A stretch of DNA of 64,000 nucleotides, taken from assembly GCA_028707125.1 (NCBI GenBank), contig JAQTUX010000001.1:468142-532141 (forward strand), read 5' to 3'. The translations under genes were made by a program, and so were the position numbers. Positions 16,286 to 37,935 of the stretch are shown in pieces; within the stretch, counting starts at the first letter, position 1; each line of letters opens with the position of its first letter. Source of the stretch: Candidatus Omnitrophota bacterium (GTDB lineage Bacteria; Omnitrophota; Gorgyraeia; Gygaellales; JAQTUX01). The notes beneath the pieces were generated by a model. That model was not told the origin of the DNA, made no database searches, and was given only the letters and a program-made list of their open reading frames with translations.

Positions 16286-16717
16286 GTGGACGGGATGAAA
16301 AAAACGAGTATGTATATTCTGTTTTTCATAGCCGCATTCTCTTTTAATCTTTTAGCAAAAGAGGCGTATCAAAACCAGTTGATTTTGGAATTAAACTTTC
16401 CAAAAGAAAGCACTGCTAAAATGGAGGCGCCGCGACCAAAGGCAGAGGCCCTGTCCATTTCCGGCGAAATCCTTGTTAACATCAGCCCTGTTCCTGAGAA
16501 AATAGAACAGGACAGGTATTTGGTGGAGTATTTCTTAGATGAGCAGTTAATATATCGAACCACCGGTTTTGACAGGCGCACTTTTGCCTGTATTCTGGAT
16601 ACTGCCCAATATGAAAACGGCACGCATAAGCTGATCATTAATTTCTGGGATAAATCCGGCCCTTCAGCCATCGGCATAAGAGAGCTTATCATTAACAACG
16701 AGGAAACAAATGAATAA
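16286..16717 (+). CDS. hypothetical secreted protein
   Basis: Signal peptide MYILFFIAAFSFNLLA and no recognisable motif. Lies immediately upstream of rhs with a 4-nt overlap. Confidence 0.3.
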   Translation: MDGMKKTSMYILFFIAAFSFNLLAKEAYQNQLILELNFPKESTAKMEAPRPKAEALSISGEILVNISPVPEKIEQDRYLVEYFLDEQLIYRTTGFDRRTFACILDTAQYENGTHKLIINFWDKSGPSAIGIRELIINNEETNE

Positions 16718-19700
16718 CCGCCTCCTGAAGATCCTCTCGGTATTCACGCTTTTCTTCTTTGTTTCCAATATCTTCATACCCCCTGTAGCCCTTGCCGAGC
16801 TTCCCTGCTGGAACGATGCCTCGCTTGCTTCCGGAGAGGGCGGGGTAGATGATGCAGCCACCGCAGGCGGCAAGCCCGCTGGCATAAACCAGAAGAACAG
16901 GACAGAGGCAGCAGATCCTGTTGATGTCTCAAACGGCAATTTCTTCTACCAGAACCAGGATTTATCCATCCCTTCACGAGGACTCTCCTTAGAGATAAAG
17001 CGCTTCTACAACAGTTTAGACACCTACGAAGGCCCCTTTGGCATAGGCACAAGCCACAGCTATAATATATTCTTGTTGGAGATTTCAGAAGCAAGCCAGA
17101 CATACGTTCTAAGGCGTAACGCCAACGGCTCAAAGGACAGATTCCTGCGGAATGCCGACGGTTCCCATACACCTTCAGCTGGCTGCTATGACACCTTAAC
17201 CAAAGACACAACCGGCTACCTGATACAGGACAAGTATGGCTTCATCTATCGCTTTGGTTTAGATGGTCGCCTTAACTCAATCACTGACCGAAACAACAAC
17301 ACAATCTCCTTAGAGTATGACTCACAATCATCTGTATTAAGCAGAGTCAGCGACAGCTTAAGCCGCTTTATTGAATTCGCTTATAACCCCCAGCGCAAGA
17401 TAAGCCAGGTAAGCGACTCTACCGGCCGCCTGATCTCATATGAATACGATTCAGACGGCAATCTAATCTATGTAACCACTCCTGCCACAGGGGATTATCC
17501 TTCAGGACTGACTACCACATACGCCTACGACGATAAGCACAGGTTAACCTCCATAACAAACGCCAGGGATAGGCGATATATATCCCTGGAGTATGATGAA
17601 AATAGCCGCGTAAAGGATCTTACCTATGGAGCAGGCGTATATCGCTTTAGCTATAAGAGCGCTCTTACAACCCTTATTGACCCCAGGGGCTTTACGACAG
17701 AATACGAGCTTAATACAGATGGCACAGTCCAGAGCCAGAAGCAATACGCCGGCAGCTCATCTTATCAAACCAGATACGAATACAACCAGAACCGCGAGCG
17801 CACCAGGATAACCTATCCTGAGGGCAACTGGGTTAAATACACCTATGATAATAAGGGCAGCATTCTGGAAATCAGGCGCAAGAAAGCCAACGCCTCTGAC
17901 AGTGATGACCCTGCAAATGACATAGTAGCTGCCTTTAGCTATGAGCCGCAGTTTAACTTCGTCAAGACCGCAACAGACCCTAAGGGCAACGTTACTACCT
18001 ATGATTATGACTCAAAAGGAAATCTCATCAAAATAATCTATCCGGCTGTTAACGGCGTAAAACCCGAAGTTAAATTCGCCTATAGTGCTTACGGCCCGCC
18101 AACCAGCGTAACAGACCCTAACGGTAATGTAACTACCTATGATTACGACCCTGATACTGGATACTTAGTCAAAACAACCGCTGCTCAAGGCGTTCTTAAC
18201 CTTATCACCCGGTTTACCTACGACACAACCGGTAACATCAAAACCGTAACCGACCCCAAAGGCAGCACCACGACATTTGAATACGACAGCCACAACAACC
18301 TGATTAAGACCACATCCGCTTCACCATTTAACTATGAGACCCTCTATAAATACGATGAGAACGATAACCTGATTGAGCTCCACAGACAGACCGGCGACCC
18401 TGATAATCCCTGGCAGACAACCTCCTACACCTATGATATCCTTGACCGGCTGGACTCTGTCAAAGACGCCATAGGCAATACCTCTAACTTTATCTATGAC
18501 TTAAACGGCAACCGCCGCTCGCTTGCAGATGCGGAAGGTAATACTACTACTTATGAATACGATGAACGCAATCTACTCTGGAGGGTAACCGACGCAGAGA
18601 ATAATGTTACAGAATACTCCTACGATACAAACGGCAACCTCAAGCAAATCACTGACGCAAAAGGCAATGCTACCGTCTACACCTACGACAGCTTTGATCG
18701 GCTCATCTCTACCACCTACGCTGACGACTCAATAGAGGAATACACCTATGACGCCAATTCCAACCTCATCACCAAAAAAGACCCCAAAGGCCAGGTCATC
18801 ACCTACGCCTATGACTCCATTAACCAGCTGGACTTAAAGACCTATCCTGATAAATCAAGCGTTGACTATGTTTATGACATCGGCTCCCGGCTTGTTGATG
18901 TCATTGACAAAATCGGCACCATACACTATGACTATGATGCGGCCAGCCGAATTACCAGCGTAACCTATCCCGGCAATAAATCCGTCTCTTACGAATACGA
19001 CGCCAATTCCAACCGCAGCAAGCTAACCTACCCCGATAATACCTATCTTACCTATATATATGATGAACTCAACCGCCTGACCAATGTAGTTGCCCCATTG
19101 ATGGGGCAAGGCAGTGCCGTCGCCTCCTACACCTATGACGCCCTCTCCAGACGCACCCGGCTTGACTACCTCAACAATACCTACTCGCTCTATGACTATG
19201 ACCCAGCCAGCCGCCTGACAACGCTTACCAATGTCTCTAACTCTATACCTAACCCCTACTCCTACACCTATGATAACGCGGGCAACAGGACGTCATTGCG
19301 AGGAGCCGAAGGCGACGAAGCAACCTACACCTATGACAAGACCTACCAGCTCACAGCCGTCAACTACCCTGACGGCTTTGCCTTCTTTGACACTGCCTAC
19401 GACTATGATGAGATAGGCAACCGCACGACAAACTACACCTCAAACTCCCTCAACCAATATACCAAGGCAGGTACAACCAACCTCGCCTACGACAGCAACG
19501 GCAACCTCACCAATGACGGCAGCTTCACCTACGCCTATGACTACGAGAACCGGCTGGTGAGCGCCTCGTCATTGCGAGGGAGCGAAGCGACCGAAGCAAT
19601 CTACGCCTACGACCCCTTCGGCAGGCGCACCTCAAAGTCATTGCGAGGAGCCGAAGGCGACGAAGCAATCTCCTACATCTACGATGGCGACCAGATCATC

Positions 19701-20468
19701 GCGGAATACGACGCAAGCAACAATCTCATCGCTAAATATATCTATGGTACGGGTATAGATGAACCCATTCTTATGCAAAGGGGGGAGAATGCTTATTACT
19801 ACCACTTTGACGGCCTGGGAAGCGTAGTAAACCTCACCGACTCTTCCGGCTCAAAGGTTGAAAGCTACACCTACGATGCCTACGGTAATCCCATTATCCA
19901 CGATCCATCATCCAATATCCTTCTTCAATCCTCCGTTGGTAATCGCTACATGTTCACAGGAAGAGAATATGATGATGAGACGGGGCTGTATTACTACAGG
20001 GCGAGGCATTATTCGCCGATGATTGGGAGATTCTTGCAGAGGGACTCTTGGCCAGGAATACCAGAAGATCCCGGTTCACTCGTTAATAAATATACCTACT
20101 GCTCCAACAATCCCATAAATTGGATAGATCCTTATGGGTGGGATAAACAGAAGAAGGATCAACCATGGTGGATTGTAGTTGGAGGTATTACAGTAGCTAC
20201 ACCTATTCAAGGGGATGAAGCAATCTTTTGGACAGGAGTAGGTATAGTTGCAATAGGTAGTTATGCTGTTCATCAGTTTAGTAAATATCACGCAAAAGGT
20301 CCGTTATGGAATGCTCCAGGTATGCCAGGGTGGAATTTAAGGCAATATGAAGAACGACAACCAGGAGCTTTCAAGCCACCGCCAAATTTTAAGAATTGGA
20401 AAGATAGAATTATATGGGCAGCTGGTTTACTCGCTAAATTATTTAATAATTTCAGAGGAGGCAGATGA
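16710..20468 (+). CDS. rhs: Sec-secreted Rhs/YD-repeat polymorphic toxin with variable C-terminal domain
   Basis: Signal peptide, dozens of YD repeats (xYxYDxxGNL) and the Rhs core ending ...YYYRARHYSPMIGRFLQRD...NNPINWIDPYGW. A ~120-aa divergent hydrophobic C-terminal domain follows, in visibly AT-rich DNA. Confidence 0.8.
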   Translation: MNNRLLKILSVFTLFFFVSNIFIPPVALAELPCWNDASLASGEGGVDDAATAGGKPAGINQKNRTEAADPVDVSNGNFFYQNQDLSIPSRGLSLEIKRFYNSLDTYEGPFGIGTSHSYNIFLLEISEASQTYVLRRNANGSKDRFLRNADGSHTPSAGCYDTLTKDTTGYLIQDKYGFIYRFGLDGRLNSITDRNNNTISLEYDSQSSVLSRVSDSLSRFIEFAYNPQRKISQVSDSTGRLISYEYDSDGNLIYVTTPATGDYPSGLTTTYAYDDKHRLTSITNARDRRYISLEYDENSRVKDLTYGAGVYRFSYKSALTTLIDPRGFTTEYELNTDGTVQSQKQYAGSSSYQTRYEYNQNRERTRITYPEGNWVKYTYDNKGSILEIRRKKANASDSDDPANDIVAAFSYEPQFNFVKTATDPKGNVTTYDYDSKGNLIKIIYPAVNGVKPEVKFAYSAYGPPTSVTDPNGNVTTYDYDPDTGYLVKTTAAQGVLNLITRFTYDTTGNIKTVTDPKGSTTTFEYDSHNNLIKTTSASPFNYETLYKYDENDNLIELHRQTGDPDNPWQTTSYTYDILDRLDSVKDAIGNTSNFIYDLNGNRRSLADAEGNTTTYEYDERNLLWRVTDAENNVTEYSYDTNGNLKQITDAKGNATVYTYDSFDRLISTTYADDSIEEYTYDANSNLITKKDPKGQVITYAYDSINQLDLKTYPDKSSVDYVYDIGSRLVDVIDKIGTIHYDYDAASRITSVTYPGNKSVSYEYDANSNRSKLTYPDNTYLTYIYDELNRLTNVVAPLMGQGSAVASYTYDALSRRTRLDYLNNTYSLYDYDPASRLTTLTNVSNSIPNPYSYTYDNAGNRTSLRGAEGDEATYTYDKTYQLTAVNYPDGFAFFDTAYDYDEIGNRTTNYTSNSLNQYTKAGTTNLAYDSNGNLTNDGSFTYAYDYENRLVSASSLRGSEATEAIYAYDPFGRRTSKSLRGAEGDEAISYIYDGDQIIAEYDASNNLIAKYIYGTGIDEPILMQRGENAYYYHFDGLGSVVNLTDSSGSKVESYTYDAYGNPIIHDPSSNILLQSSVGNRYMFTGREYDDETGLYYYRARHYSPMIGRFLQRDSWPGIPEDPGSLVNKYTYCSNNPINWIDPYGWDKQKKDQPWWIVVGGITVATPIQGDEAIFWTGVGIVAIGSYAVHQFSKYHAKGPLWNAPGMPGWNLRQYEERQPGAFKPPPNFKNWKDRIIWAAGLLAKLFNNFRGGR

Positions 20469-20962
20469 TAAAAAATAAATTACTTTTTCATATGATACCA
20501 ATAGAAGATAGAACTAATAAAGGTTATAAGAATTTAGTTGAAAATATTTTAAAACATGCTTTCTATTTTATTCCAGCAGAAGATTTGGAGGGAATAGAAA
20601 AAATAATACTTTTAGATGAATGCCAAGATCGAGAGTTTAAATGGGCGGGTGGATTTTATTATGCCTATGAAGAAAAGGATGCTATTATAGAACTGTATCC
20701 TCCAAAAATAATAGATGCAAAACCATTTTTTGTTCCAACATCAAAATTCTTTAATAGTTACTCAATCACTAAGATGTTTTTGCATGAATTGGGACACCAT
20801 AAATTCGGAAATGTGCAGGAACGAGAATTCAAAGCTCAAGAATACATGGTGTTATATATTAAGAAAATATATGGCAATTGGATTTATTTTTTTGATTTTT
20901 TAGCTAGACTAGATAATTTTTTACGTAAGTTTCTCAAAACCTTCAACAAAAAAGCAATGTAG
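20465..20962 (+). CDS. small protein downstream of the Rhs C-terminus: candidate immunity protein or HExxH zincin-like partner
   Basis: ATGA overlap with the rhs stop and GGAGG RBS. Contains HELGHH (HExxH) at residues ~107-112. AT-rich. Confidence 0.35.
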   Translation: MIKNKLLFHMIPIEDRTNKGYKNLVENILKHAFYFIPAEDLEGIEKIILLDECQDREFKWAGGFYYAYEEKDAIIELYPPKIIDAKPFFVPTSKFFNSYSITKMFLHELGHHKFGNVQEREFKAQEYMVLYIKKIYGNWIYFFDFLARLDNFLRKFLKTFNKKAM

Positions 20963-21022
20963 TATAACGAAAAAACGCCAACGAAGCTTTACATAACTAG
21001 CAATACATAATGGGCATAACGG

Positions 21023-21036
21023 GGACGGTTCTCTTT
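21023..21036 (+). repeat. REP-like motif GGGGACGGTTCTCT (copy upstream of RAYT)
   Basis: Same 13-14-mer occurs at 206-220 (+) and as the reverse complement at 21775-21790. Confidence 0.6.
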
Positions 21037-21157
21037 ATCATAACCTTAACTATCATAATCACTTACAACACCTACTTTATAAATTTTAAGATTTCTTGCA
21101 AGTAAACGCCTCATTTTTGCGTCTATTATAGTAGAAGGGCAGAAAGGGGGCGTTTTT

Positions 21158-21763
21158 ATGCCACGAGACAGAAGGCACATACCAGAGGCAGGTTTCCTGC
21201 ACGTTATATCCAGAGGCAACAACAGAAGGAAGATATTTCGGTATGAGAGAGATTTAGAGGCGTATTATTCAATTCTTCTTCAAAGCAAAGCAGAAGACAG
21301 AATCAACATCTCTCATTATTGCCTGATGAGCAATCATATACACTTGATACTGGAGGTAAACGAAGCAAGCAACCTTTCCAGGTTCATGAAGCGGGTAAAC
21401 CTGAGGTACGTCTACTATTACAGAAGAAAGTATGCCTACTGCGGCCATCTCTGGCAGGACAGGTTCAAGGCAAAGACTATAGACAATGAGGAATACCTTA
21501 TTCAATGCGGCAAATACATAGAGCTGAATCCTGTTAGAGCGGGCATAGTCAAGAGACCTGAAGAATATCGGTTTTCCAGTTACCTCCACTATGCTTATGG
21601 AGCTGAGGATGTATTGATACAAGATAATCCTTTCTACTCTGAATTGGGAGAGAGCCAAGAGCGAAGGCAAACAATTTACAGAGATATGATTATAGAAGAG
21701 ATGATAGAGAAGGGCCTAAGACAGGAAAAAATAATTGAGCACTCAGAACTTATTGCGGTATAA
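21158..21763 (+). CDS. REP-associated tyrosine transposase (RAYT) / IS200-like Y1 HUH transposase
   Basis: HUH motif SNHIHLILEV and catalytic Tyr region YYYRRKYAYCGHLWQDRF, with N-terminal HVISRGNNRRKIF. Flanked by inverted GGGGACGGTTCTC motifs. Confidence 0.75.
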   Translation: MPRDRRHIPEAGFLHVISRGNNRRKIFRYERDLEAYYSILLQSKAEDRINISHYCLMSNHIHLILEVNEASNLSRFMKRVNLRYVYYYRRKYAYCGHLWQDRFKAKTIDNEEYLIQCGKYIELNPVRAGIVKRPEEYRFSSYLHYAYGAEDVLIQDNPFYSELGESQERRQTIYRDMIIEEMIEKGLRQEKIIEHSELIAV

Positions 21764-21791: not shown

Positions 21792-21872
21792 CCCGCCTCA
21801 CGCGCACCATCCCTTATGAAGTCGTCTGCCAGGTAGGCAGGCGCGTCCCGCGCGTATACAAATAATATTTAC
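21792..21872 (+). repeat. right copy of the alr 3'-end direct repeat (degenerate C-terminal coding fragment ...RLTRTIPYEVVCQVGRRVPRVYK*)
   Basis: 61/61 nt identical to 12088-12148, then 16/20 identical. Its stop abuts the convergent lptF/G stop. Confidence 0.8.
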
Positions 21873-22972
21873 AGAGTATCCTGGAATTTGAACAGGGCGA
21901 TATAAAGGAAGATGATGTTTGTCGTCCACGCGGCAAGAAGGGGGGGCAGCAGGCCGGATTTTCCCAGGGCGATGCTTACCGCGTCCATCACGTAATACAG
22001 GAAGGCGATGATCATGCATATGCCGATAGAGGACAGCGCCGCGCCGCGTTTCTTGATCTCCAGGGAAAACGGTATGCCCAGCAGGATTATTACTAGGCTG
22101 GTAAAGGGAAAGGAGGTCTTGTAAAATAAATCCACCTGAAGGTTCCTTATGACCGTCTTTGCCCCGCTTTTTGAGATCTTTCGTATGTAATTATTCAAAC
22201 GGGCCATATTCATATGCTCCGGCCGCTGCCTTTGTTCTATAAAATCCTTGGGCGTCTCGTCAAGATACATCGCGATCTCCGCGTGGAATTCGGGGTTGCC
22301 CTTTACGATGCCGCGGCTGTCAAAATAGAATATGGTGCATTTGTAGAGGTTCCAGTATTTATCCTTCCATACGCCTTTATCCGCCAGGATCTTTGAAGTG
22401 ATATTCTGGTTTTTATCCTGCTCAAGTATGGTCACGTTTTCAATGGTATTTGACTGCGTATCAAAGGACTTGATAAAAAACAGCCGGTTGCGCAGGCCGT
22501 AGATCGAAAGGTTATTTATCTCCGGCCGCGACCGCTTTTTATTCCTGTCCGCGCTTGAATACTCCATCTGCCTTTTTATCTGCTCGGTCGTTTCCCTGGC
22601 ATTGGGCACGAGGCGTTCATTGGCCATGAACACAAAGGCGCTTATGACGCATCCGAAGAACACCGTTGAGCGGCAGATCTGCCAGAGGCTCAGGCCTGAG
22701 GCGCGCATAGCCACTATCTCGTGGCTGCGGTTGAGGCGGCCGAAGGTGTAGAGCACGGCAAGCAGGCAGGCGATGGGCGAGGTCTGGATAAATATCACCG
22801 GCAGGTATGAGGCGTAGTATTGCAGCAGGAGGGGCGGGTTCATGCCCTGTTTCAGTATCTCGTCCAGATGGCTGAGTATATCAATGGCTATATACAGGAG
22901 GAAGAACAGCGACTGTGTCCCTATAAACAGTGAGGCCGTTGATTTGAGGATGTAACGGTCTAATATACGCAT
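21869..22972 (-). CDS. LPS export ABC permease, LptF/LptG (YjgP/YjgQ) family
   Basis: Six-TM permease architecture with a periplasmic beta-jellyroll insert, paired with an adjacent paralogue. Confidence 0.65.
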   Translation of the reverse strand: MRILDRYILKSTASLFIGTQSLFFLLYIAIDILSHLDEILKQGMNPPLLLQYYASYLPVIFIQTSPIACLLAVLYTFGRLNRSHEIVAMRASGLSLWQICRSTVFFGCVISAFVFMANERLVPNARETTEQIKRQMEYSSADRNKKRSRPEINNLSIYGLRNRLFFIKSFDTQSNTIENVTILEQDKNQNITSKILADKGVWKDKYWNLYKCTIFYFDSRGIVKGNPEFHAEIAMYLDETPKDFIEQRQRPEHMNMARLNNYIRKISKSGAKTVIRNLQVDLFYKTSFPFTSLVIILLGIPFSLEIKKRGAALSSIGICMIIAFLYYVMDAVSIALGKSGLLPPLLAAWTTNIIFLYIALFKFQDTL

Positions 22973-24048
22973 GACTTATAGGTAAGCACGCCGCCTATGG
23001 CGCCCAGCAGCACATTAGGCGCCCACATAGCGATATTGGGGTTGAAATTGCTCTGCAGGCAGAGCGCCTCCGCTCCGATCACGAGAAGGTAGTAGGCGCC
23101 CACGATGAGGAAGGCGATGCCGAAATTCACGGACTTTTCCCGCCGCCTTGTGATTATCGCCAGCGGAGCGCCGATAAGCACAAAGACAAGGCAGGAGAAC
23201 GCCATTGATAATTTTTTATTTATCTCCGTGATCAGGGGAAGGGGGTTGATGCCTTTTGTTTTCAACCTGCCGATCTCCTGCATCAGTTCTTTTATCGTCA
23301 TATGCTTGGGCTTCTTCTCTACTTCCCCCGTGGCAGAGGCAAGGTTAAGCGTCATAAAATAGGTCTTGAAATTCAATTTGTAGAAGCTGTTGGGTTCGTT
23401 GGGGTCGGGTTCGTCGGATGTGCCGTCCAGCAGTTTAAGTTTGACTATATTCTTGTCGGGGATGGCTATGAATTCCCCTTCTTTGGCGACGATCGTCCTG
23501 GTGGGCTTGCCTTCCTGCGGCTCATAGATCCTTATGTTGGAGAACCTGTTGCCTTCTATCTGGTAGATGAACAGGACGTATTTTTCAAAAGAGTCAATGA
23601 ATACCCCCGGCTCAAGCGCGGCAGTGGGGTTGCTTACCCCCACCCGCATCACCGCCTTTTTTGAGGCAAGCTGGGCGCGGGGGATGACCTTATCGTTGAA
23701 TACGACGAGCACGAGGCTCATGATCAGGCCCAGCACAAGGATGGGCACTATCAGGCGGAATATGTTTATTCCGCTTGAGCGTATGGCTATTATTTCGTTG
23801 TCGGAAGACAGCCGGCCGAAGCACAGGAGCACGGCCGCGAGCGTGGCAATAGGCAGGGTATAGCTGAAGAGGTATGGGGTCAGGAGCAAGAACAGCTTGC
23901 TTACGCTGACGATGTCAACCCCTTTGTTGATCACCAGGTCGGCCATCTTTACCATGTTCCCCAGAAGCATCACGAACGTCAACACCAGAATGGACGCTAT
24001 CAGGGGGGCGGCAAATTCTTTCAATATGTAATTTCTCAGGATCTTCAT
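22960..24048 (-). CDS. LPS export ABC permease, LptF/LptG (YjgP/YjgQ) family
   Basis: Same family as the neighbour, with overlapping start and stop. Confidence 0.65.
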   Translation of the reverse strand: MKILRNYILKEFAAPLIASILVLTFVMLLGNMVKMADLVINKGVDIVSVSKLFLLLTPYLFSYTLPIATLAAVLLCFGRLSSDNEIIAIRSSGINIFRLIVPILVLGLIMSLVLVVFNDKVIPRAQLASKKAVMRVGVSNPTAALEPGVFIDSFEKYVLFIYQIEGNRFSNIRIYEPQEGKPTRTIVAKEGEFIAIPDKNIVKLKLLDGTSDEPDPNEPNSFYKLNFKTYFMTLNLASATGEVEKKPKHMTIKELMQEIGRLKTKGINPLPLITEINKKLSMAFSCLVFVLIGAPLAIITRRREKSVNFGIAFLIVGAYYLLVIGAEALCLQSNFNPNIAMWAPNVLLGAIGGVLTYKSCVY

Positions 24049-24049
24049 T

Positions 24050-24751
24050 TTAGTTCGCGAGGGTATACACGTAGATCTTTGCGCAGCCGGCCTTCTTCAA
24101 TACCTCGGCCGCTTCCTGAACTGTGGCTTGAGTGGTCATGATATCGTCAAACAGCATTATGGATTTTCCTTTGACAGCTTCAGGATCGTCTAAGGCAAAG
24201 CAGCCCTTGACGTTGCCGGCCTTATGTTCCGGCTCAAGCTCTGATTGAGGCCGGGTATATTTTACGCGCCGCAATCCCTTAAATATCTCTAATCCGAATT
24301 CCTCCGCCAGTTCTTCGCAGAGGAGCATCGCCTGATCGAATTCCCTTTCTCTGAGTTTTCTGCCGTGCAGCGGTATGGGCACGATAAGGTCCACGTTCGT
24401 AAGCGGCAAATAATTTTCCCGGATATACTCGATCAACAACTTACCCAGCAGCTCCTTCAGTTTCAGCCGGCTGGAGTATTTAAACAGATGTATCAGTTTT
24501 CTGGCGCACCCTTTATATTTCAGGCAGGCATACGCCTTTTCAAAGGCGGCCCCTTTGCCGCCGGGCGCGTAGCACACGTTGTTTTTCTCTATTTTCTCCC
24601 AACATTCAAAGCAGAGCAGCCCATCTATGTTGACCTCCTTGAGCCTCCTGCCGCATACGAGGCAGACCTTGGGGTAGAGGATGTTTATCAGGCCCTCCAC
24701 GGCGCCGCATAGCATAGCCAATATAATAACAACTAATATGGTTGAATTCAA
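24050..24751 (-). CDS. comFC: ComF family phosphoribosyltransferase-domain protein
   Basis: N-terminal double zinc ribbon (CLVCGRRL...CFECW) and PRTase motif IMLFDDIMTTQATV. Confidence 0.6.
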   Translation of the reverse strand: MNSTILVVIILAMLCGAVEGLINILYPKVCLVCGRRLKEVNIDGLLCFECWEKIEKNNVCYAPGGKGAAFEKAYACLKYKGCARKLIHLFKYSSRLKLKELLGKLLIEYIRENYLPLTNVDLIVPIPLHGRKLREREFDQAMLLCEELAEEFGLEIFKGLRRVKYTRPQSELEPEHKAGNVKGCFALDDPEAVKGKSIMLFDDIMTTQATVQEAAEVLKKAGCAKIYVYTLAN

Positions 24752-24845
24752 GGAGAAAAAGTTGTAGAATATATTTGCAATACTCGGGTCCGGGATTGGC
24801 TGTTATTTCCGGAGGTTAAATAGTTGATGGCCGGGCCGCCATCTG

Positions 24846-25943
24846 ATGAAACGTCAGGTGGCGGTTTTCTTTGGGGGAACGCGAACAATGGATAAATATC
24901 TTATCTTTTCAACGCGGGAAGTGGTCGGGATATTATTACCTTTGGCTGTTTTCATAGTCACTTTAATATCGGGTTTTATCATCAGGAAGGTTATCTTTTC
25001 CCGCCTGGCGCGCTGGTCTGAAAAGACCAGGACCGAGATCGACGACGTCATTATTACTTCCGCCAAAGGCCCTTTTATGATCTGGTTTTTAATGCTGGGG
25101 CTTTATTTCGCGCTTGAATCCTCAAGTATCCCCGAAGGTTCAAGTCATTTTATTAACAAACTCTTGTTGGTTCTTGGTATTCTGTCCGTCACCTTTGTCC
25201 TGTCAAATGTGACAGCGAAGTTGATCAGGATATATTCGCGTAAAGTGGAAACCGCCTTGCCCGTTACTTCGCTTACCGGGAATATCAGCCGCATAGTGAT
25301 ATTCGGTGTGGGGATTTTAATAATCCTGAATAGCCTGGGCATCTCCATAACGCCTATTTTAGCCACCTTAGGTGTCGGCGGCCTGGCCGTTGCCCTGGCC
25401 TTACAGGATACCCTTTCCAATCTTTTCGCAGGTTTTCATATTATCGTTACTAGGCAGATCAGGGTGGGAGATTACATAAAGTTAGACACCGGAGAAGAGG
25501 GTTACGTCATTGATATTACCTGGAGGACGACCCAGGTCAAGATGCTGCCCAATAACGTGGTATTGGTCCCCAATGAAAAGCTTACCAAGGCCATCGTAAC
25601 CAACTATTATCTTCCCGATAAAGAAATGGCCGTCCTGGTTAATTTAGGGGTCCACTACAAAAGCGATCTGAAGAAGGTTGAGAAGATAACCTGTGAAGCG
25701 GCGGCGGAGGTCATGAAATCGGTAACCGGAGGCGTCCCGGAATTCCAGCCCTTTATCCGCTACGGAGGTTTCGGCGATTCCGCCATAAATCTCACCGTGA
25801 TCTTGAGGGCGAAGGAATTCGTGGACCAATACCTGATCAAGCATGAGTTCATAAAGCTGCTCCATGAGCGTTTTTCCAAAGAAGGCATCGTGATCCCCTA
25901 TCCCATAAGAGCGGTAAATTACGAACAGGAAAAAGAGAAATGA
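24846..25943 (+). CDS. mechanosensitive ion channel, MscS family
   Basis: Three N-terminal TM helices, then the MscS beta-domain signature IRVGDYIKLDTGEEGYVIDITWRTTQVKMLPNNVVLVPNEKL. True start may be the Met at 24891. Confidence 0.75.
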   Translation: MKRQVAVFFGGTRTMDKYLIFSTREVVGILLPLAVFIVTLISGFIIRKVIFSRLARWSEKTRTEIDDVIITSAKGPFMIWFLMLGLYFALESSSIPEGSSHFINKLLLVLGILSVTFVLSNVTAKLIRIYSRKVETALPVTSLTGNISRIVIFGVGILIILNSLGISITPILATLGVGGLAVALALQDTLSNLFAGFHIIVTRQIRVGDYIKLDTGEEGYVIDITWRTTQVKMLPNNVVLVPNEKLTKAIVTNYYLPDKEMAVLVNLGVHYKSDLKKVEKITCEAAAEVMKSVTGGVPEFQPFIRYGGFGDSAINLTVILRAKEFVDQYLIKHEFIKLLHERFSKEGIVIPYPIRAVNYEQEKEK

Positions 25944-28174
25944 AGAGAGTCCTTTTATTTATCCTGCCGATCCTGATCCTTATCTCCGTCGCCTTCACTA
26001 TATTCGGGATACTCCAGGTCCGCTATGAAGAAGAGAAGCTTATGGATGACCTGAAAAGAAAGGCGAGGACGGTAGCGGAAAGCGTGGAATTGTCCGCCAG
26101 GCACGCGCTTATTAACGGCGACCTGAAGTCGGCCAAGCGGTTAGTGGAAAGTTTCCAGAAAAGAGAAAGGATGCAGGGCTGCGTAATCTATGATAAGAAC
26201 GGGCAGGTCCTGGTCATTACTGAACGCATCTCTGACTGGGCGCGGAAAGATAAACCTTACCTTAGAGACGTTCTGGACGGCAAGAGCGCCGTCGGGGCGA
26301 TGGAAAAATTCGGCGATTATTCCGTATACGTCCATGCCCTGCCGGTCCTGGACGATGAAAATAATATATTGGGCGCGGTAGAGGTCGTTTACGATACCTC
26401 TTATCTATTCATCACTCTGGCAGACCTGTGGAGGCGGATAAGCATAACCCTGATAACCTTGATCGTGCTTATAGCCATAGCCGCTTTATTGATCCAGAGG
26501 CAGATCTTTATCCTGCCTGTGCGCCGGCTCACTCAATGGTTCACTCATTTTCAAAAAGGAGAAACGGAAAAGTTGAAGCCGTTCGAAGAAAAGGGCGAGT
26601 TTGGGCGGCTGGTAAGCGAAGTAGAGCAGGTCGCCCTGGGCCTGAGGGTGGCGCGTAAGGTGGTCAGCGAAGAAGCGCATGTCCGCCTCGCCAAAGAGGA
26701 CCTGTGGACGGAGCATAAATTAAAAGACCTTATCCACGCTAAGTTGGGAGACAACGCCTTTTTTGTGGTCTCCAACCGCGAGCCGTATATGCACGTCATA
26801 GATGAGGTGACCGGCGCGCCTAAATGCATCCGGCCGGCAAGCGGCGTTGTCACCGCCATAGACCCGATACTGCGCGCCTGCGGCGGGACGTGGATCGCGC
26901 ACGGAAGCGCGGAGGCGGACAGGAGGTTTGTCAACTCCAGGGATAAACTGGGGGTGCCGCCGCAAGACAACCGTTATATCCTGAAGAGGGTATGGCTTAC
27001 CAAGGAAGAGGAGGAGGGCTATTATTACGGTTTTGCCAACGAGGGCTTATGGCCGCTTTGCCATGTTACTCATACCCGCCCCATATTCAGGGAGACCGAC
27101 TGGCAGATGTATAAGAAGGTAAACCAGAAATTTGCCGACAGCGTTTTAGAGGAACTGCCGGCAAAGAACCCGTTTGTCTTTATCCAGGATTATCATTTCA
27201 CCATGCTTGCCAGGATGATCAAGGAAAAAAGGCCCGACGCTACGATAGCGCTGTTCTGGCATATCCCCTGGCCTAACCCGGAGGTCTTCGCGATCTGCCC
27301 CTACCAGCGGGAGATCCTCAATGGGATGCTCGCCTGCGATCTGATCGGCTTCCACGTGCAGGTCCATTGCAACAACTTTCTTGACACGGCCAACCGCCTG
27401 ATCGAATGCCGCGTTGACACGGAAAAATTCAGCATAGTCAGGGCCAGTAAGGAGACGTTTGTCAGGGCCTTTCCCATCAGCGTTGACGTACACATGGGCG
27501 CTAAGGCGTCTAAAGCCGAATCCAGCCAGATAGACGCGATACGCCAGGAATTTCAATTGCAGGATAAGCTGGTCGCCGTGGGCGTGGACAGGATAGATTA
27601 TACTAAAGGCATAATTGAAAGGGTGCTCGCCGTTGACAGGTTTCTGGAAAAATATCCGGAATATAAAAATAAGTTCGTATTCATCCAATTGGCCGCTCCC
27701 AGCAGGACCCATATTAAGCGCTATCATGAGCTTATCGGGGAGATAGATGAATTGGTCGAAAAAAAGAACTGGAAATACTCGGAAGGGGACTGGAAGCCGA
27801 TAATCTATCTAAAGAAGTATTTTTCGCAGGAAGAGGTAAGGCCGTATTATCTGCTCGCGGACCTGTGTATCGTGAGCTCTTTGCATGACGGGATGAATTT
27901 AGTCGCGAAAGAATATGTGGCGTCAAAGGCCGATCTAAGCGGCGCTTTGATCCTGAGCCGTTTTACCGGCGCCGCCCGGGAGCTCACCGATGCCGTGCAG
28001 ATAAACCCCTATTCCATAGAAGAATTCGCGGACGCGATAAAGCTTTCTCTTGAGATGCCCGCGGAGGAAAAGAGGAAGCGCATGGAGAACATGCAGAGGA
28101 TCATCAGCGAGAACAATGTCTATCGCTGGGCAGGCAGCATAGTTACGGAGCTGACCGCGTTGAATAAGGCATGA
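25940..28174 (+). CDS. otsA: trehalose-6-phosphate synthase (GT20) fused to an N-terminal two-TM sensor-like region
   Basis: GT20 catalytic core from ~aa 268 (FFVVSNREPY...GFANEGLWPLCH...IGFHVQ...), about 470 aa long. It is preceded by TM1, a ~140-aa extracytoplasmic segment, TM2 and a HAMP-like amphipathic linker. Confidence 0.85.
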   Translation: MKRVLLFILPILILISVAFTIFGILQVRYEEEKLMDDLKRKARTVAESVELSARHALINGDLKSAKRLVESFQKRERMQGCVIYDKNGQVLVITERISDWARKDKPYLRDVLDGKSAVGAMEKFGDYSVYVHALPVLDDENNILGAVEVVYDTSYLFITLADLWRRISITLITLIVLIAIAALLIQRQIFILPVRRLTQWFTHFQKGETEKLKPFEEKGEFGRLVSEVEQVALGLRVARKVVSEEAHVRLAKEDLWTEHKLKDLIHAKLGDNAFFVVSNREPYMHVIDEVTGAPKCIRPASGVVTAIDPILRACGGTWIAHGSAEADRRFVNSRDKLGVPPQDNRYILKRVWLTKEEEEGYYYGFANEGLWPLCHVTHTRPIFRETDWQMYKKVNQKFADSVLEELPAKNPFVFIQDYHFTMLARMIKEKRPDATIALFWHIPWPNPEVFAICPYQREILNGMLACDLIGFHVQVHCNNFLDTANRLIECRVDTEKFSIVRASKETFVRAFPISVDVHMGAKASKAESSQIDAIRQEFQLQDKLVAVGVDRIDYTKGIIERVLAVDRFLEKYPEYKNKFVFIQLAAPSRTHIKRYHELIGEIDELVEKKNWKYSEGDWKPIIYLKKYFSQEEVRPYYLLADLCIVSSLHDGMNLVAKEYVASKADLSGALILSRFTGAARELTDAVQINPYSIEEFADAIKLSLEMPAEEKRKRMENMQRIISENNVYRWAGSIVTELTALNKA

Positions 28175-28181
28175 GTATGCC

Positions 28182-28979
28182 ATGAAAGATATTTTGCTCT
28201 CCTGGGGGGGCGTCAAGAAGGAGATAGCCGGTAAACATCTTCTGCTGTTTTTGGATTATGACGGGACGCTTGCCCCGATCGCGCGGACGCCCGGAGAGGC
28301 GGTTCTTTCTAAAGAGGTAAAAGGATTATTACGGGGCCTGTCCACGAGCCCTTATTGCTCGCTGGGCATCATCAGCGGCAGGGCCCTGGGAAGCATAAAG
28401 AAGGCCGTGGGGATAAAAGGCATTATTTATGCCGGCAACCACGGCCTGGAGATAGAAGGGCCCGAGTTCAAATTTACAGTGCCTCTTTCGCCGCGCTTTA
28501 GGTCGGCCCTGCGCGATATCTCCGGAAAATTGCGCAAGCGGCTTTCCGGCATAAAAGGCGTTCTCATGGAGGATAAGGGCCTGACGCTGAGCATCCATTA
28601 TCGTTTAGCCGGCAGAAAAGATATCCCCGCGTTTGAGAGGGCCGTTTCCGAGGTTACCCGTCCTTACGCCGCGCGCGGCAGTGTAGGGATCGATCATGGG
28701 AAGAAAGTTTATGAGATAAAACCCCCTATACAATGGGATAAAGGCAAAGCCGTCTTATGGCTTATGGCAAGGCGGCAATTTGCCTCAGGAGGCAAAGGCG
28801 TTCTTCCCGTTTATATCGGAGACGACGTAACCGATGAAGATGCCTTTAAGGCATTAAAAAGAAGGGGGCTGACGGTATTCGTGGGGGAGAGGCGCGCTTC
28901 CAGGGCCGATTACCGCCTGAAGAACACGGGAGAGGTGGCGAAGTTCCTGCGTTTAATATCAGCGTTAAAGCGTGAATAG
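28182..28979 (+). CDS. otsB: trehalose-6-phosphate phosphatase
   Basis: HAD motif I LLFLDYDGTL, motif GDDVTDE, and adjacency to otsA. Confidence 0.8.
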   Translation: MKDILLSWGGVKKEIAGKHLLLFLDYDGTLAPIARTPGEAVLSKEVKGLLRGLSTSPYCSLGIISGRALGSIKKAVGIKGIIYAGNHGLEIEGPEFKFTVPLSPRFRSALRDISGKLRKRLSGIKGVLMEDKGLTLSIHYRLAGRKDIPAFERAVSEVTRPYAARGSVGIDHGKKVYEIKPPIQWDKGKAVLWLMARRQFASGGKGVLPVYIGDDVTDEDAFKALKRRGLTVFVGERRASRADYRLKNTGEVAKFLRLISALKRE

Positions 28980-28982
28980 ATC

Positions 28983-29654
28983 ATGCCCGAGTCAATAAAA
29001 GCAAAAGAGCCGTTCAGGTTTTTCACGAGATTGCACCTGTCGGAGCTGACCGGATTAAGAGCCGTCACCTTAGGCCAATTGCTGGGCTTTATCAAGGAGG
29101 TGTCTGGTTCCTGCATTTATCACCACACCCATAGATATCTGCAGCAGCACCAGTATCTTTCTCCCGAGCCGCCTAATGATTTCGCGTATTGGGTAAGCGA
29201 GGTCCTTGGCGAAGATGAGCTCGCGGAGATGCTGGTCAGCATTGATACGGTGCAATACCCGACCATCCGGCAATTGAGGGAAAAGATCGCGGCCACGATC
29301 GAGGCGTACTTAAAAGAGAGCCCTTCCGCTAAGCTGAAATTCGCGCGTTCAGGAGAAGAGTTCCATTTCATCAAGTCGGTAAGTTTTATTTTACCGACAA
29401 ACTATATCGTTTATGATCTGAGCGAATTCGCGCGGGTCCTGAGGAAGATCACCATTGACTCTATCTATTTTCATATCTTTGAGGCGCGCCTGCGGCTGGA
29501 AAAGGCGGCAAACGACTTTTCATACTGGATAGAGAATTCTTTGGGCGACAAGGAATTGGCTGATAACATTTCCGGCTTTGACCCCTATACCCGCACCCTG
29601 GAAGACCTGAGGAAAACAATCGTCCGGATAATCGAAAGAAGGATACGGGATTAG
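28983..29654 (+). CDS. hypothetical protein with internal two-fold repeat, embedded in the trehalose cluster
   Basis: Two ~45-aa repeats (FAYWVSEVLGEDELAEMLVSIDTVQYPTIRQLREKI / FSYWIENSLGDKELADNISGFDPYTRTLEDLRKTI). No motif I can name. Confidence 0.3.
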   Translation: MPESIKAKEPFRFFTRLHLSELTGLRAVTLGQLLGFIKEVSGSCIYHHTHRYLQQHQYLSPEPPNDFAYWVSEVLGEDELAEMLVSIDTVQYPTIRQLREKIAATIEAYLKESPSAKLKFARSGEEFHFIKSVSFILPTNYIVYDLSEFARVLRKITIDSIYFHIFEARLRLEKAANDFSYWIENSLGDKELADNISGFDPYTRTLEDLRKTIVRIIERRIRD

Positions 29655-30869
29655 ATGGCAAAGATAGAAGAATATATACCTATTGTGGGGCAGTCCATCA
29701 TCGACGACCTGAGGCTGCTCGGCGAACGCCTGAAAGGCAAGGTCATCCAGCATATAAACTCTACTCCTGTAGGAGGCGGGGTCGCCGAGTTGTTAAACCG
29801 CATGGTCCCGTTGTTAAAAGAGCTGGCGGTAGACGCGAGGTGGGACGTAATAAAGGGCGGCGAGCAATTCTTTAACGTGACCAAGAGGTTCCATAACGCG
29901 CTGCACGGCAGGGCCGAGGATATAACACAAAGGGATTTTGAAGTATTCCTGGAGACCAGCAGGGAAAACATCGCGAATGTCAATACCTACGGGGATATTG
30001 TCTTTGTCCACGACCCGCAGCCGATAGCCCTGATAAAAAAGAGGTCCGAGAACAAATGGCTTTGGCGCTGCCATATTGATGTGTCTAATCCCGACAAAAA
30101 GGTCTGGGAGTTTCTAATGGATTTTATTATTCAGTATGACTCGGCGGTATTTTCCGCCCCGGCCTTCTCGCAAAAACTGCCGATAAGGCAATTCTTGATC
30201 TCTCCGTCCATCGACCCTTTAAGCGATAAGAACAAAGAGCTGCCGCGGGAGGTGATAGACGGCGTTTTACAAAAATATAATATCAGTAAAAATAAGCCGA
30301 TAATCACCCAGATATCCCGCTTTGACCGCCTGAAAGACCCTGTAGGTGTGATCGACGCGTATAAGCAGGTAAGAAGATATATCAATTGCCAGCTGGTTTT
30401 GGCCGGCGGCGCCGCGGAAGACGACCCGGAGGGCCTGAAGGTCCTTGAGGAAGTTAAAGAGAAGGCCAGGAATGATCCGGATATCCATATATTGCTTTTG
30501 CCTCAAAATGATATAGAGGTGAACGCGCTGCAAAGGGCCTCAGACGTCATTATCCAGAAGTCCCTGAGGGAAGGGTTCGGTTTAACGGTCGCCGAGGCCT
30601 TGTGGAAGGCAAAGCCGGTTGTGGCCTCCAATGTCGGCGGTATCCCTCTGCAAATAAAACATAAATACTCAGGGCTGCTTTGCCATTCTATTGAGGGGGC
30701 CAGTTTTGCCATAAAACAGCTCTTAAGCAGCCCTGAATACGCCGGAAAATTGGGAGAGAACGGGCGCGAACATATAAAAAACAATTTTTTAGTTACGAGG
30801 CACTTAAGAGATTATATGCTGCTGTTCCTTTCATTGTATTACCAGGAAGATGTCATTAACCTGTGTTGA
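29655..30869 (+). CDS. treT: trehalose glycosyltransferring synthase TreT (GT4)
   Basis: Blocks match archaeal/thermophile TreT almost residue for residue: VNSTPVGGGVAE, ARWDVIKG, FFNVTKRFHNALHG, VHDPQP, WLWRCHID, PSIDPLSDKN, KPIITQISRFDRLKDP, DDPEG, ALQRASDVIIQKSLREGFGLTVAEALWKAKPV, VGGIPLQI. Confidence 0.8.
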   Translation: MAKIEEYIPIVGQSIIDDLRLLGERLKGKVIQHINSTPVGGGVAELLNRMVPLLKELAVDARWDVIKGGEQFFNVTKRFHNALHGRAEDITQRDFEVFLETSRENIANVNTYGDIVFVHDPQPIALIKKRSENKWLWRCHIDVSNPDKKVWEFLMDFIIQYDSAVFSAPAFSQKLPIRQFLISPSIDPLSDKNKELPREVIDGVLQKYNISKNKPIITQISRFDRLKDPVGVIDAYKQVRRYINCQLVLAGGAAEDDPEGLKVLEEVKEKARNDPDIHILLLPQNDIEVNALQRASDVIIQKSLREGFGLTVAEALWKAKPVVASNVGGIPLQIKHKYSGLLCHSIEGASFAIKQLLSSPEYAGKLGENGREHIKNNFLVTRHLRDYMLLFLSLYYQEDVINLC

Positions 30870-30950
30870 TTTCGGCGGTTTTGACTTTGATTGACAGAGA
30901 TATATAGTAAAGGTAGAATAAGGGCTAAAGAAATACAGGCAGAGGTGATA

Positions 30951-36702: not shown

Positions 36703-37935
36703 ATGGAAAATTATGTAAAGGAAATGTATTTGGATATTGTTAAGTCAAAAATTGCTGCCTATAAAATCCTTAATTTTGGTGATAAGTTTTCTTTAAAAGC
36801 ACCTTCTAAAATTAACTGTAAAGATTTTAAAGAGCTTATTGCAAAGCTTGAAAATGAGACTTTACAAGATGGTGCAATAGTCACTTTAGATGGTTATTTT
36901 TCAAATTATGCCCAAATGTATTTCCCATTGACATATATGCCTTCAATCCCGTCTGTGGCTAAAATAGAGGAAATTGAAGAAGCACATCAAATCACGGAGG
37001 ATATTATTATTCCTCGAGTAAAAGGAAACTTGCAGTTTTCGTTCAAGAGTTTTCAATTACCAATAGAAAATATTCCGGTTTTAAATATTGAAAATAGACA
37101 GTGGAAAATTGGATTCTTGTATCCTAAGGAATTTTCGGGTTTTAATTTTGAAGAAGATAAAACACCTGAGAAGAATAAATTAAGAGAGCTACGCTTAAAA
37201 ATCCCCTCTTCCGCAACACCGGTTTTGGTTCTTTATGACAATTCTGTTTATTCTCAATTTACGGAAAGCGACGTAATAATTACCGCACAAGTTGCCGTCT
37301 TGGACAAAGCGCTTGTTGATGAATTCGGATGTTGTTTAGGGGACTTACAGTATTTATTACAAAGGAATTCATTTTTTAGAAAAAAGGAAGATACTAATGC
37401 CTTATGTTTAATCCTTAACAAATTCACTGGCGGGATAAAAAATAGTGTAAAACGAGAAGTCGAGGGGACTTTGTTATTGGAAGCATATTTTAGAAAGGAG
37501 ATGCATGTAACTGAACAAGGTTTATCAAAAGCCTTACCCAATGCTCCTGGTGGCTTGCGTATAGCTAATTACCCGCCTTATGCACAAGCAGGATATGGGG
37601 CAAGTATACCTACCAATAAAGTTAATTTTGTTTTACGCCAACCGTTAACCTTCTCAATCTTAACTAATTCGTCAGTTAATAAAGAAGTTTTGTTAAAAGA
37701 CATTGAGTTAATGCGCATACATTTTATGCTATTTATTCGTAATATATGCGCAATAAAAGCGAGCGAGCGTAAAATTAGTCTTTCTCCTCCCGATATATTT
37801 TTCTTATCTTCAATATATGAAAAGAGTTTATTCGGAATAGATAATTTCTTGAAAGCTGCAGGCGGAATTGAAGGAGTTAAAGGATTGGCAGGCTTTAATG
37901 AAACTAGAAACTGGCTTTGGGACTTCTGTTCTTAA
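36703..37935 (+). CDS. hypothetical protein (410 aa), AT-rich, no recognisable domain
   Basis: Long ORF, AT-rich composition unlike its flanks, promoter immediately upstream, and a 4-nt stop overlap with the convergent partner. Confidence 0.5.
   Translation: MENYVKEMYLDIVKSKIAAYKILNFGDKFSLKAPSKINCKDFKELIAKLENETLQDGAIVTLDGYFSNYAQMYFPLTYMPSIPSVAKIEEIEEAHQITEDIIIPRVKGNLQFSFKSFQLPIENIPVLNIENRQWKIGFLYPKEFSGFNFEEDKTPEKNKLRELRLKIPSSATPVLVLYDNSVYSQFTESDVIITAQVAVLDKALVDEFGCCLGDLQYLLQRNSFFRKKEDTNALCLILNKFTGGIKNSVKREVEGTLLLEAYFRKEMHVTEQGLSKALPNAPGGLRIANYPPYAQAGYGASIPTNKVNFVLRQPLTFSILTNSSVNKEVLLKDIELMRIHFMLFIRNICAIKASERKISLSPPDIFFLSSIYEKSLFGIDNFLKAAGGIEGVKGLAGFNETRNWLWDFCS

Follow-up and report, generated by a model that had tools for sequence, protein, structure and literature searches.

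A putative osmoadaptation operon of Candidatus Omnitrophota in which trehalose-6-phosphate synthase carries a receptor-like transmembrane module

Introduction

Genes for a mechanosensitive channel, a glycosyltransferase (GT) and the two activities that produce trehalose through trehalose-6-phosphate (T6P), namely T6P synthase (TPS) and T6P phosphatase (TPP), are linked in the stress operon msc-gt-tpsp of Thermoproteus tenax (Zaparty et al. 2013, PMC3634074). There they are co-transcribed, the fused TPS and TPP depend on the soluble GT partner for activation, and the proposed logic is that trehalose is made under stress and leaves through the channel when the stress is relieved. A comparable set of genes was found in the 64,000-nt stretch of DNA analysed here (hereafter the window), which belongs to Candidatus Omnitrophota bacterium (GTDB lineage Bacteria; Omnitrophota; Gorgyraeia; Gygaellales; JAQTUX01) and covers positions 468,142–532,141 of the forward strand of contig JAQTUX010000001.1 in assembly GCA_028707125.1. 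On its plus strand a leader RNA with a terminator is followed by mscS, by otsA coding for a TPS with an N-terminal membrane module (hereafter sensor-OtsA), by otsB coding for TPP, and by orfY and treT, the latter coding for a glycosyl-transferring trehalose synthase. Like the T. tenax operon, it combines a channel gene with a GT20-family TPS, TPP functions and a glycosyltransferase of family GT4, and it appears to supply the synthase with an additional regulatory input. Unlike that operon, it keeps otsA and otsB separate, has no GT of the activating kind, equips OtsA with a transmembrane Cache-HAMP module, is preceded by a riboswitch leader and resides in a bacterial host. We consider it fairly probable that all these elements together make up a five-gene osmoadaptation operon, the transcription of which is gated by a cation and in which a module resembling that of WalK tunes the activity of OtsA.

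The separate parts of this locus, that is OtsA and OtsB, TreT, OrfY, the linkage to MscS and the nhaA-I RNA with its loose association with otsA, are already known. RNAs of the nhaA-I class were described as Li+-selective ON switches and termed Li+-I (White et al. 2022, PMC9646797). The same paper describes rare variants, named Na+-II, in which an intrinsic terminator is present and C takes the place of U; they react to Na+ with a dissociation constant in the low millimolar range, and Deltaproteobacteria were the only group in which they were registered, in front of genes without known function (PMC9646797). An occasional association of the class with TPS genes was noted there as well, and Table I of that paper lists otsA 16 times, glycosyl transferase five times and mscS three times among 944 cases (PMC9646797).

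The module that precedes the catalytic part of OtsA is similar in topology, fold and the presence of HAMP to the input parts of the histidine kinases WalK, CitA and DcuS. In place of the core of dimerization/phosphotransfer and catalytic domains (DHp/CA) of these kinases, the output part here is a GT-B glycosyltransferase, there is no phosphorelay, and synthesis of a metabolite would itself be the response. In mycobacterial HAMP-adenylate cyclases and in HAMP-diguanylate cyclases a dimeric HAMP links a sensor or membrane module to a dimeric catalytic domain; unlike these enzymes, whose outputs are second messengers, sensor-OtsA would yield the precursor of an end product. Synthesis of compatible solutes in bacteria is usually seen as controlled by transcription or by cytoplasmic ionic strength acting on soluble enzymes. 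In the literature that was searched no description of an OtsA fused to Cache and HAMP was found.

A receptor-like module precedes the catalytic domain of OtsA

The open reading frame (ORF) of otsA (25940–28174, + strand), assigned from the ORF itself, Pfam and an alignment of homologues, codes for 744 amino acids (aa); this length and the positions of the four ORFs from otsA to treT coincide with those of the first-pass annotation, which had been made from the letters of the DNA alone. It had read the N-terminal part as a transmembrane helix (TM1), an extracytoplasmic segment of ~140 aa, a second helix (TM2) and a HAMP-like linker leading to GT20, and on this order hydropathy, Pfam (GT20 from residue 274), the AlphaFold model and hhalign agree. 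Two hydrophobic segments with Kyte-Doolittle means of about 3.0 in a 19-residue window are present. TM1 (residues ~4–26, 25949–26017, mean 3.0) belongs to a continuous model helix 2–59, and TM2 (residues ~166–188, 26435–26503, mean 3.05) belongs to helix 154–206, which continues into the first amphipathic segment (AS1) of HAMP. Residues ~27–165 between them (26018–26434) form an extracytoplasmic sensor domain of the single-Cache/PDC type, assigned by sCache_3_2 matches in the family and by Foldseek. HAMP itself (residues ~190–245, 26507–26674) was delimited by hhalign, by Pfam in homologues and by the helix-connector-helix layout of the model; its AS1 reads ILPVRRLTQWF, the connector contains KGE, and the second amphipathic segment (AS2) starts with GEFGRLVSEVEQVAL. 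All these segments lie on the + strand. Since basic residues stand before TM1 (K2/R3) and an R/Q/R-rich stretch follows TM2, both the N-terminus and the GT20 domain should be cytoplasmic. The window also codes for an AsmA/YhdP-like protein of 823 aa (50323–52794, − strand) and for LptF/LptG (21869–24048), which fit a diderm envelope and thus place the sensor domain of OtsA in the periplasm.

The model of residues 1–272 (predicted local distance difference test score, pLDDT, 82) consists of an alpha/beta core at 80–152 and of helices 2–59, 154–206 and 220–251, with a connector between the last two. Its matches in Foldseek range in E from 1.7e-12 to 1e-5; the best one is the entire N-terminal module of WalK (E 1.7e-12, 271 columns), and it is followed by isolated sensor domains of WalK (1e-7 to 1e-6), CitA, DcuS and DctB. 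In hhalign the family profile aligned at a probability of 98.6% with histidine kinase P0206, an enzyme of the Cache-HAMP-PAS-GAF type, over the whole TM1-Cache-TM2-HAMP span. This alignment pairs ILPVRRL...KGEFGRL with ILPIFKL...NDELGRL of P0206 and puts residues 190–233 on its HAMP, which is significant in Pfam. Within the family sCache_3_2 matches 13 of 19 members at E <= 0.01, and Pfam HAMP (PF00672) matches six of 19 homologues with the best E of 2.2e-6. The check for dCache and HAMP proposed for the N-terminus was therefore borne out for HAMP, by family and hhalign homology, and not for the double Cache, which was ruled out as there is one alpha/beta core of ~135 aa and it matches CitA and WalK.

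A pattern scan over 185,579 species genomes revealed relatives of the module in at least 268 of them, mostly Candidatus Omnitrophota, where they are annotated as “trehalose-6-phosphate synthase” or “hypothetical”. Eighty related loci were fetched; downstream sequence was sufficient in 56 of them, and adjacency of mscS was scored in 46. The median identity to the window is 69% for the sensor, 78% for GT20, 49% for OtsB, 72% for the DUF5752 protein OrfY and 79% for TreT. Eighteen homologues align with sensor-OtsA from Met1 (MKRxLLFILPIL...), so that its start was not mis-called, and the invariant residues include Q79, G80, C81, Y84, T94, Y130, P135, G145, D152, Y155 and W164 in the periplasmic part as well as P193, W200, F201, F204, Q205, G207, G222, E227 and A232 near the membrane. 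Both the median identity of 69% and the many invariant positions in the periplasmic part and in HAMP indicate that selection acts on the sensor.

An exhaustive search of 1.84 billion representatives with the sensor profile gave 2075 matches at E <= 1e-3, of which 340 had E <= 1e-10 and 48 had E <= 1e-30; from this search and from the fetched loci the full-length members were taken. All full-length matches checked at E from ~1e-121 to 1e-28 (739–913 aa, including PYV27934.1 from Acidobacteriota) turned out to be GT20 fusions, and the two matches checked at E ~1e-20 to 1e-21 are histidine kinases. With fusions at strong and kinases at weaker E-values, the module looks as if it was recruited from a kinase and was later retained and diversified together with GT20.

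Thus, the N-terminal extension of OtsA is real and conserved and is built as a transmembrane receptor input module joined to a GT20 domain which appears catalytically intact. Control of T6P synthesis in the manner of a receptor is the most economical explanation of such architecture. Signalling through the module is what we infer from it, which gives some ground to the assumption that the module merely anchors the enzyme in the membrane or serves as a scaffold, for instance in the vicinity of MscS or sugar transporters, and that all regulation goes through transcription under the riboswitch. Translational coupling of mscS and otsA would be in line with such an anchor, and so would the fact that in two other loci (L087 and L088, see below) the same cassette is served by an OtsA which belongs to this GT20 subfamily but has no sensor. 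A plain anchor, however, has no use for a folded periplasmic PDC domain of ~140 aa with about a dozen invariant residues, HAMP has preserved the Pro, Gly and E-x-G-x-L typical of this domain, and the module is retained across clusters that share less than 50% identity. We regard a purely anchoring role as unlikely, though not to be neglected.

Catalytic domain of OtsA and the T6P phosphatase

The GT20 domain occupies residues 274–739 (26759–28156, + strand; Pfam PF00982, 406.9 bits at a cutoff of 32.5, E 1.4e-121). Among solved structures the closest is that of mycobacterial OtsA (5JIJ, E 2.9e-83), and in comparison with it the motifs VVSNRxP, DYH, HIPxP, GVDRxDYxKG and DGMNLVAKEY are identical or conservatively changed. 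The functional residues, which we take to be, by E. coli numbering, the N-terminal Arg, Asp of DYH, His of HIP, the R...K pair and Asp/Glu of DGMNLVAKEY, fall into these motifs, and the catalytic domain appears active. The product of otsB (28182–28979, + strand) had been identified as T6P phosphatase from the beginning, and this assignment stands well above the cutoff of TIGR00685 (164.8 bits against 68; Pfam Trehalose_PPase E 2.7e-41), with both HAD motifs, DYDGT and GDDVTDED, in the translation.

OrfY and TreT form a pair

The next ORF, orfY (28983–29654, + strand), was initially taken for a 223-aa protein of unknown function made of two ~45-aa repeats. Both parts of this description have to be corrected. 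The protein belongs to DUF5752 (Pfam E 5.9e-67) and is a homologue, with matching fold, of T. tenax OrfY, the structure of which is solved (PDB 4CSO). Its repeating units are two homologous halves of ~100 aa each (residues ~6–110 and ~121–221, E 3e-8), which correspond to a tandem duplication; each half bears one NDF(A/S)xW motif and an invariant His, and the stretch NDFxxW...LG..ELA is the most conserved part of each. The label “transcription factor” given by the depositors of 4CSO was not supported by fold comparison, and nothing relevant was found in the literature searched on DUF5752, on OrfY with trehalose or on 4CSO. The orfY-treT pair of T. tenax is reportedly the subject of a study by Kouril et al. 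from 2008.

At the base directly after the stop codon of orfY begins treT (29655–30869, + strand; family GT4). Its identity, proposed already in the first-pass annotation, was reproduced by PF21269 (TreT_GT1, 182.9 bits at a cutoff of 27, E 3.4e-54), by PF00534 (94.4 bits) and by full-length alignments with PDB 6ZJ4 (E 2.3e-121) and with the Pyrococcus enzyme 2X6Q (E 6.5e-103). The NCBIfam equivalog TreT_Thcocales, a Thermococcales-specific model, was not reached (370 bits against 775), and by alignment the TreT of the window is closest to the Thermoproteus type.

Archaeal and bacterial relatives of OrfY were found with the 4CSO sequence, and their neighbourhoods were inspected. In Thermoproteus the DUF5752 gene overlaps the start of treT; in Pyrobaculum orfY-treT adjoins TPSP, the gene of a fused synthase/phosphatase, together with a GT4 gene and an ORF of 194 aa; and a marine bacterium represented by a metagenome contig (L085/L086) has the orfY-treT pair on its own. 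In the Pyrobaculum sp. locus (L083:1018–6822) TPSP, GT4 and the 194-aa ORF are divergent to orfY-treT, the 194-aa ORF has no Pfam match and is of the size and in the position of T. tenax msc, and the gene orders of two separately described T. tenax trehalose operons thus lie contiguously. A high-GC bacterial metagenome-assembled genome (MAG) has the order otsA-otsB-orfY-treT with a sensor-less OtsA of 502 aa (L087:1161–6043, L088:236–4438), the GT20 domain of which belongs to the same subfamily as the catalytic domain of the window; in L087 an MscS-like gene follows treT. Since orfY stands directly upstream of treT in the window, in 53 of 56 Omnitrophota loci, in Thermoproteus, in Pyrobaculum and in two unrelated bacterial lineages, OrfY and TreT are an obligate pair of archaea and bacteria. 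Unlike the Thermoproteus pair (4CSO, 6ZJ4), that of the window sits behind otsA-otsB within one riboswitch-controlled operon. The presence of two trehalose routes side by side, at first considered unusual, is in itself nothing exceptional, as the order otsA-otsB-DUF5752-treT is kept in the same 53 of 56 loci and its sensor-less version exists in another bacterial MAG. The two-route cassette would predate the sensor fusion, and the sensor-less version can serve for comparison with the ancestral state.

We assume that TreT with its partner OrfY would provide a second route of trehalose synthesis. It is also conceivable that TreT works in reverse, turning trehalose back into NDP-glucose and glucose once the stress is over, or that this GT4 protein activates TPS through a complex, as GT of T. 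tenax does. TreT enzymes of Thermococcus and Pyrococcus are reversible, and of the whole cassette DUF5752 and TreT are among the most conserved (72% and 79% against 49% for OtsB), which both speak for a role of this kind. The precedent for activation is the T. tenax GT, also a GT4 protein, which activates TPSP through complex formation (PMC3634074). Against recycling stands the proximity of the window protein to the Thermoproteus type (6ZJ4), cited in a passage of PMC7688234 as unidirectional, that is, as working in the direction of synthesis only. Against activation stands the gene arrangement of Pyrobaculum (L083), where the activating GT has a gene of its own beside orfY-treT, so that TreT is not that GT. 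Recycling or activation in place of synthesis seems to us improbable to much the same degree as the anchoring role of the sensor module.

A riboswitch of the nhaA-I class with a terminator precedes the operon

The aptamer (24786–24844, + strand) corresponds to Rfam RF03057 over model positions 1–55 of 55 and scores 47.4 bits at a gathering threshold of 37. Its stem P1 is formed by 24790–24797 with 24805–24812 and P2 by 24826–24831 with 24838–24843, with the loop CGGGCC. The expression platform (24836–24872, + strand), detected with ViennaRNA, is an intrinsic terminator with a 13-bp stem (24836–24848 with 24852–24864), the loop AAA and then TTTTCTTT at 24865–24872; its fold of −24.1 kcal/mol has a z-score of −5.8, and none of 200 shuffled sequences was as good. 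A simple consensus scan for terminators did not list this site, but ViennaRNA and comparative analysis did find it. Since the 5' arm of the terminator reuses CC of the aptamer loop and the entire 3' arm of P2, the two structures are mutually exclusive, and this is an ON-switch design.

Homologous leaders were collected with a covariance model of our own, built from five copies; copies L013a and L013b, which MAFFT had mis-registered, were left out of the seed alignment. In 89 sequences it found 60 copies, all on the strand of the cassette. The alignment was fitted to this model and is thereby biased towards the structure. Of its cells 96% are paired (32–54% in controls with slid partners), 84 are compensatory against 23.6 in shuffled alignments, with none of 500 shuffles reaching this number, and double changes occur in ten of 14 pairs. 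An overlapping hairpin with a T-run was registered in 56 of the 60 leaders. Among the 74 loci with enough upstream sequence, 44 have an aptamer within the limit of 300 nt from the first gene of the cassette; this gene is otsA in 34 of them, mostly 40–55 nt downstream, and mscS in the other ten.

The full-length aptamer, the terminator ON platform, the apparent change of U to C and the association with otsA and mscS relate the leader to the described Li+-I/Na+-II riboswitches (PMC9646797). It differs from the published set in that the terminator type is the rule in Omnitrophota (56/60) and stands before a compatible-solute operon, and in that most copies keep U. Neither a terminator-type nhaA-I RNA outside Deltaproteobacteria nor one in front of a defined osmoprotection operon was found described in the searchable literature. 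In the window P2 is closed by C24831 (GAUGG-C-CGGGCC), whereas the class consensus has U at this place. The Na+-II construct from D. propionicus reads here GUUAG-C-CGGGCC, and the Li+ construct from R. eutropha, like the consensus, UGG-U-CGGGCC, with C being the only conserved difference. Four of the 60 copies have this C. As the window aptamer bears what appears to be the C of the Na+-II variant, a rise of intracellular Na+ upon salt stress is the likely trigger.

One could suppose, nevertheless, that the leader belongs to the canonical Li+-I type and that the operon is a defence against lithium toxicity rather than a response to osmotic stress or Na+. It is mainly for Li+ selectivity that the Rfam family nhaA-I has been validated, the consensus U is present in 56 of the 60 related aptamers, and control of trehalose synthesis by Li+ was raised by the authors of PMC9646797 themselves. 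On the other hand, the window aptamer combines what appear to be both marks of the Na+ variant, C and the terminator platform, and the C54U mutant still responds to Na+ (PMC9646797). The cargo, which comprises compatible-solute synthesis and MscS, also fits osmotic or envelope stress, as do MscS, SPFH/Band 7, OmpA-LysM and permease genes behind the same RNA elsewhere. A lithium defence is, in our opinion, less likely still than either of the alternatives discussed above.

Additional copies of the riboswitch were found at L006:616–668, L035:3770–3825, L008:2529–2592, L058:562–615, L051:1358–1415 and L025:4–59, and the genes behind such copies code for SPFH/Band 7, OmpA-LysM, DapB, a Trp/Tyr-type permease and a further MscS. 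Copies are also present downstream of treT in L013, L017, L020, L025, L037 and L080, where the loci end soon after. This distribution suggests a small riboswitch regulon of salt and envelope stress in related Omnitrophota.

Boundaries and composition of the operon

The first-pass annotation began the unit at 25940, that is with otsA, yet it starts upstream, with the riboswitch and its terminator (24786–24872) and mscS (24846/24888–25943). The latter gene (ORF 24846–25943, + strand) contains the first, second and third MS_channel domains of Pfam, the TM2/3, beta and C-terminal domains (PF21088, PF00924 and PF21082) all being above threshold. Because ATG 24846 of the longest ORF is situated within the terminator stem, the true start is probably ATG 24888, which follows GGGGGA at 24873–24878 and gives a protein of 351 rather than 365 aa. 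The distance from the aptamer to this ATG is 44 nt, compared with 42 nt to the start of the mscS ORF in L025. A promoter-like site (24742–24770, + strand; TTGAAT, 17 nt, TAGAAT), registered by consensus scan with 9 of 12 matches and being a pattern match only, lies 16 nt 5' of the riboswitch, in a position compatible with a transcription start just before 24786. Together, the riboswitch and mscS upstream of the trehalose genes give the strongest evidence for a role of the operon in salt or osmotic adaptation.

The stop codon of mscS overlaps the start codon of otsA (ATGA); the gaps are 7 nt between otsA and otsB, 3 nt between otsB and orfY and 0 nt between orfY and treT, and the consensus scan detected no terminator-like sites between the four latter genes. 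In other loci mscS adjoins the cassette in 19 cases of 46, being directly upstream of it in ten and between otsA and otsB in nine. Where sensor-otsA stands alone (7001–9238 in L014, L031 and L078), it is followed by unrelated genes, for example OmpA-like, YggT-like or GMP-synthase-like, and in L031 the riboswitch leader is still present before it.

The supposition that the N-terminal extension of OtsA is an artefact of annotation, with the true start near residue 260–284, is virtually impossible. In its favour one could point out that after residue 121 no Met occurs before Met284, but this Met is already inside GT20 (from residue 274). From Met1 onwards the N-terminal 272 residues are conserved in the 18 homologues, with 60–82% identity in the 80 loci, full-length proteins of 739–761 aa recur across many clusters, and the ATG is the one that overlaps the mscS stop.

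Downstream of treT the genes of a phosphoribosyltransferase (PRTase), an M48 protein and pseudopilins are co-directional and close. They were considered as members of the operon and rejected, as they are not syntenic elsewhere and as treT is followed by a strong promoter-like site. The sites of this kind at 30881–30919 (+ strand), located just past treT and across the TTG with which the PRTase ORF opens, score highest in the region (11 and 10 matches of 12). An ATG further on, near 30954, is probably the actual start of the PRTase gene, which would thus be served by a promoter of its own; if so, the trehalose operon would have its 3' end here.

Possible mode of action

Based on these data one can assume the following sequence of events. 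Salt stress would raise intracellular Na+, binding of the cation would allow P2 to form and would block the terminator, and mscS, sensor-otsA, otsB, orfY and treT would be transcribed. Sensor-OtsA, inserted into the membrane as a dimer, would act as a one-component transmembrane receptor enzyme with a short helical linker between its module and GT20. A signal arising at the periplasmic domain or in the membrane would reach the paired GT20 domains through the HAMP bundle and change how they are arranged or how active they are, and in this way the rate of T6P synthesis could be tuned without new gene expression. OtsB would dephosphorylate T6P to trehalose, and TreT with OrfY would add a supply from NDP-glucose and free glucose. 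MscS may serve as a valve for release of the solute upon hypo-osmotic shock, as was proposed for T. tenax (PMC3634074).

Several observations weigh against this interpretation. For the protein of the window itself the scores of Cache and HAMP remain under the curated thresholds of Pfam (sCache_3_2 22.1 bits against 28.4 and CHASE8 22.8 against 27, with dCache at E ~1e-4 as well; HAMP 13 bits against 25, E 0.14). We infer the transfer of a signal from HAMP to GT20, and to our knowledge no HAMP-to-glycosyltransferase pair has been characterised. The NCBIfam equivalogs of OtsA were missed (429 bits against 565 for TIGR02400 and 486 against 634 for PRK14501), so that its acceptor specificity is deduced from the adjacent T6P phosphatase; by such scores its GT20 is a divergent subfamily. 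In three loci sensor-otsA occurs alone, and in 30 of the 74 no aptamer could be detected over 300 nt of upstream sequence. As to the cation, “position 54” of White et al. was placed at the P2-closing base by elimination from the construct sequences (67 nt in the text, not 71), and not from the figure, while the predominance of U in the related aptamers makes it uncertain whether the ligand of the family is Li+, Na+ or both.

Taking all this into account, we propose only tentatively, as something that falls a little short of being probable, that Cache-HAMP-GT20 is an undescribed class of one-component receptors with a glycosyltransferase output, that together with a riboswitch of the Na+ type it constitutes an osmostat with two inputs, and that the operon is the first physiological context for a terminator-type nhaA-I RNA outside Deltaproteobacteria. 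If so, a receptor wired straight to OtsA would be a solution different from the usual modes of control of compatible-solute synthesis and would add to HAMP proteins a class with glycosyltransferase output. Being a single polypeptide with an easy assay, it may become a convenient model for control of non-kinase outputs by HAMP. The leader extends the published account of Li+/Na+ riboswitches, the terminator type being here the rule and standing before a complete osmoprotection operon. DUF5752/OrfY gains a firm genomic definition as the partner of TreT across archaea and bacteria, and the operon as a whole suggests how uncultivated Omnitrophota handle salt.

Other features of the window

Upstream of the operon, 12245–16279 (+ strand) codes for a probable large surface protein of 1344 aa, in which repeated FlgD_ig domains are combined with PPC domains and with CHU_C/Por_Secre_tail-like domains of the kind that serve type IX secretion sorting. 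It is followed by an RHS-repeat/YD-shell protein of 1252 aa with N-terminal DUF6531 (16710–20468, + strand), after which small ORFs at 20465–21763 lie in a low-GC patch (GC 0.39), a layout usual for polymorphic toxin and immunity genes. Downstream of the operon an ORF of 810 aa (37932–40364, − strand) has no Pfam match at E <= 1e-4 and coincides with the lowest-GC part of the window (0.34–0.39), so this region may be foreign DNA. A full-length tmRNA (42542–42958, + strand), which ARAGORN did not report, was detected with Rfam at 106 bits.

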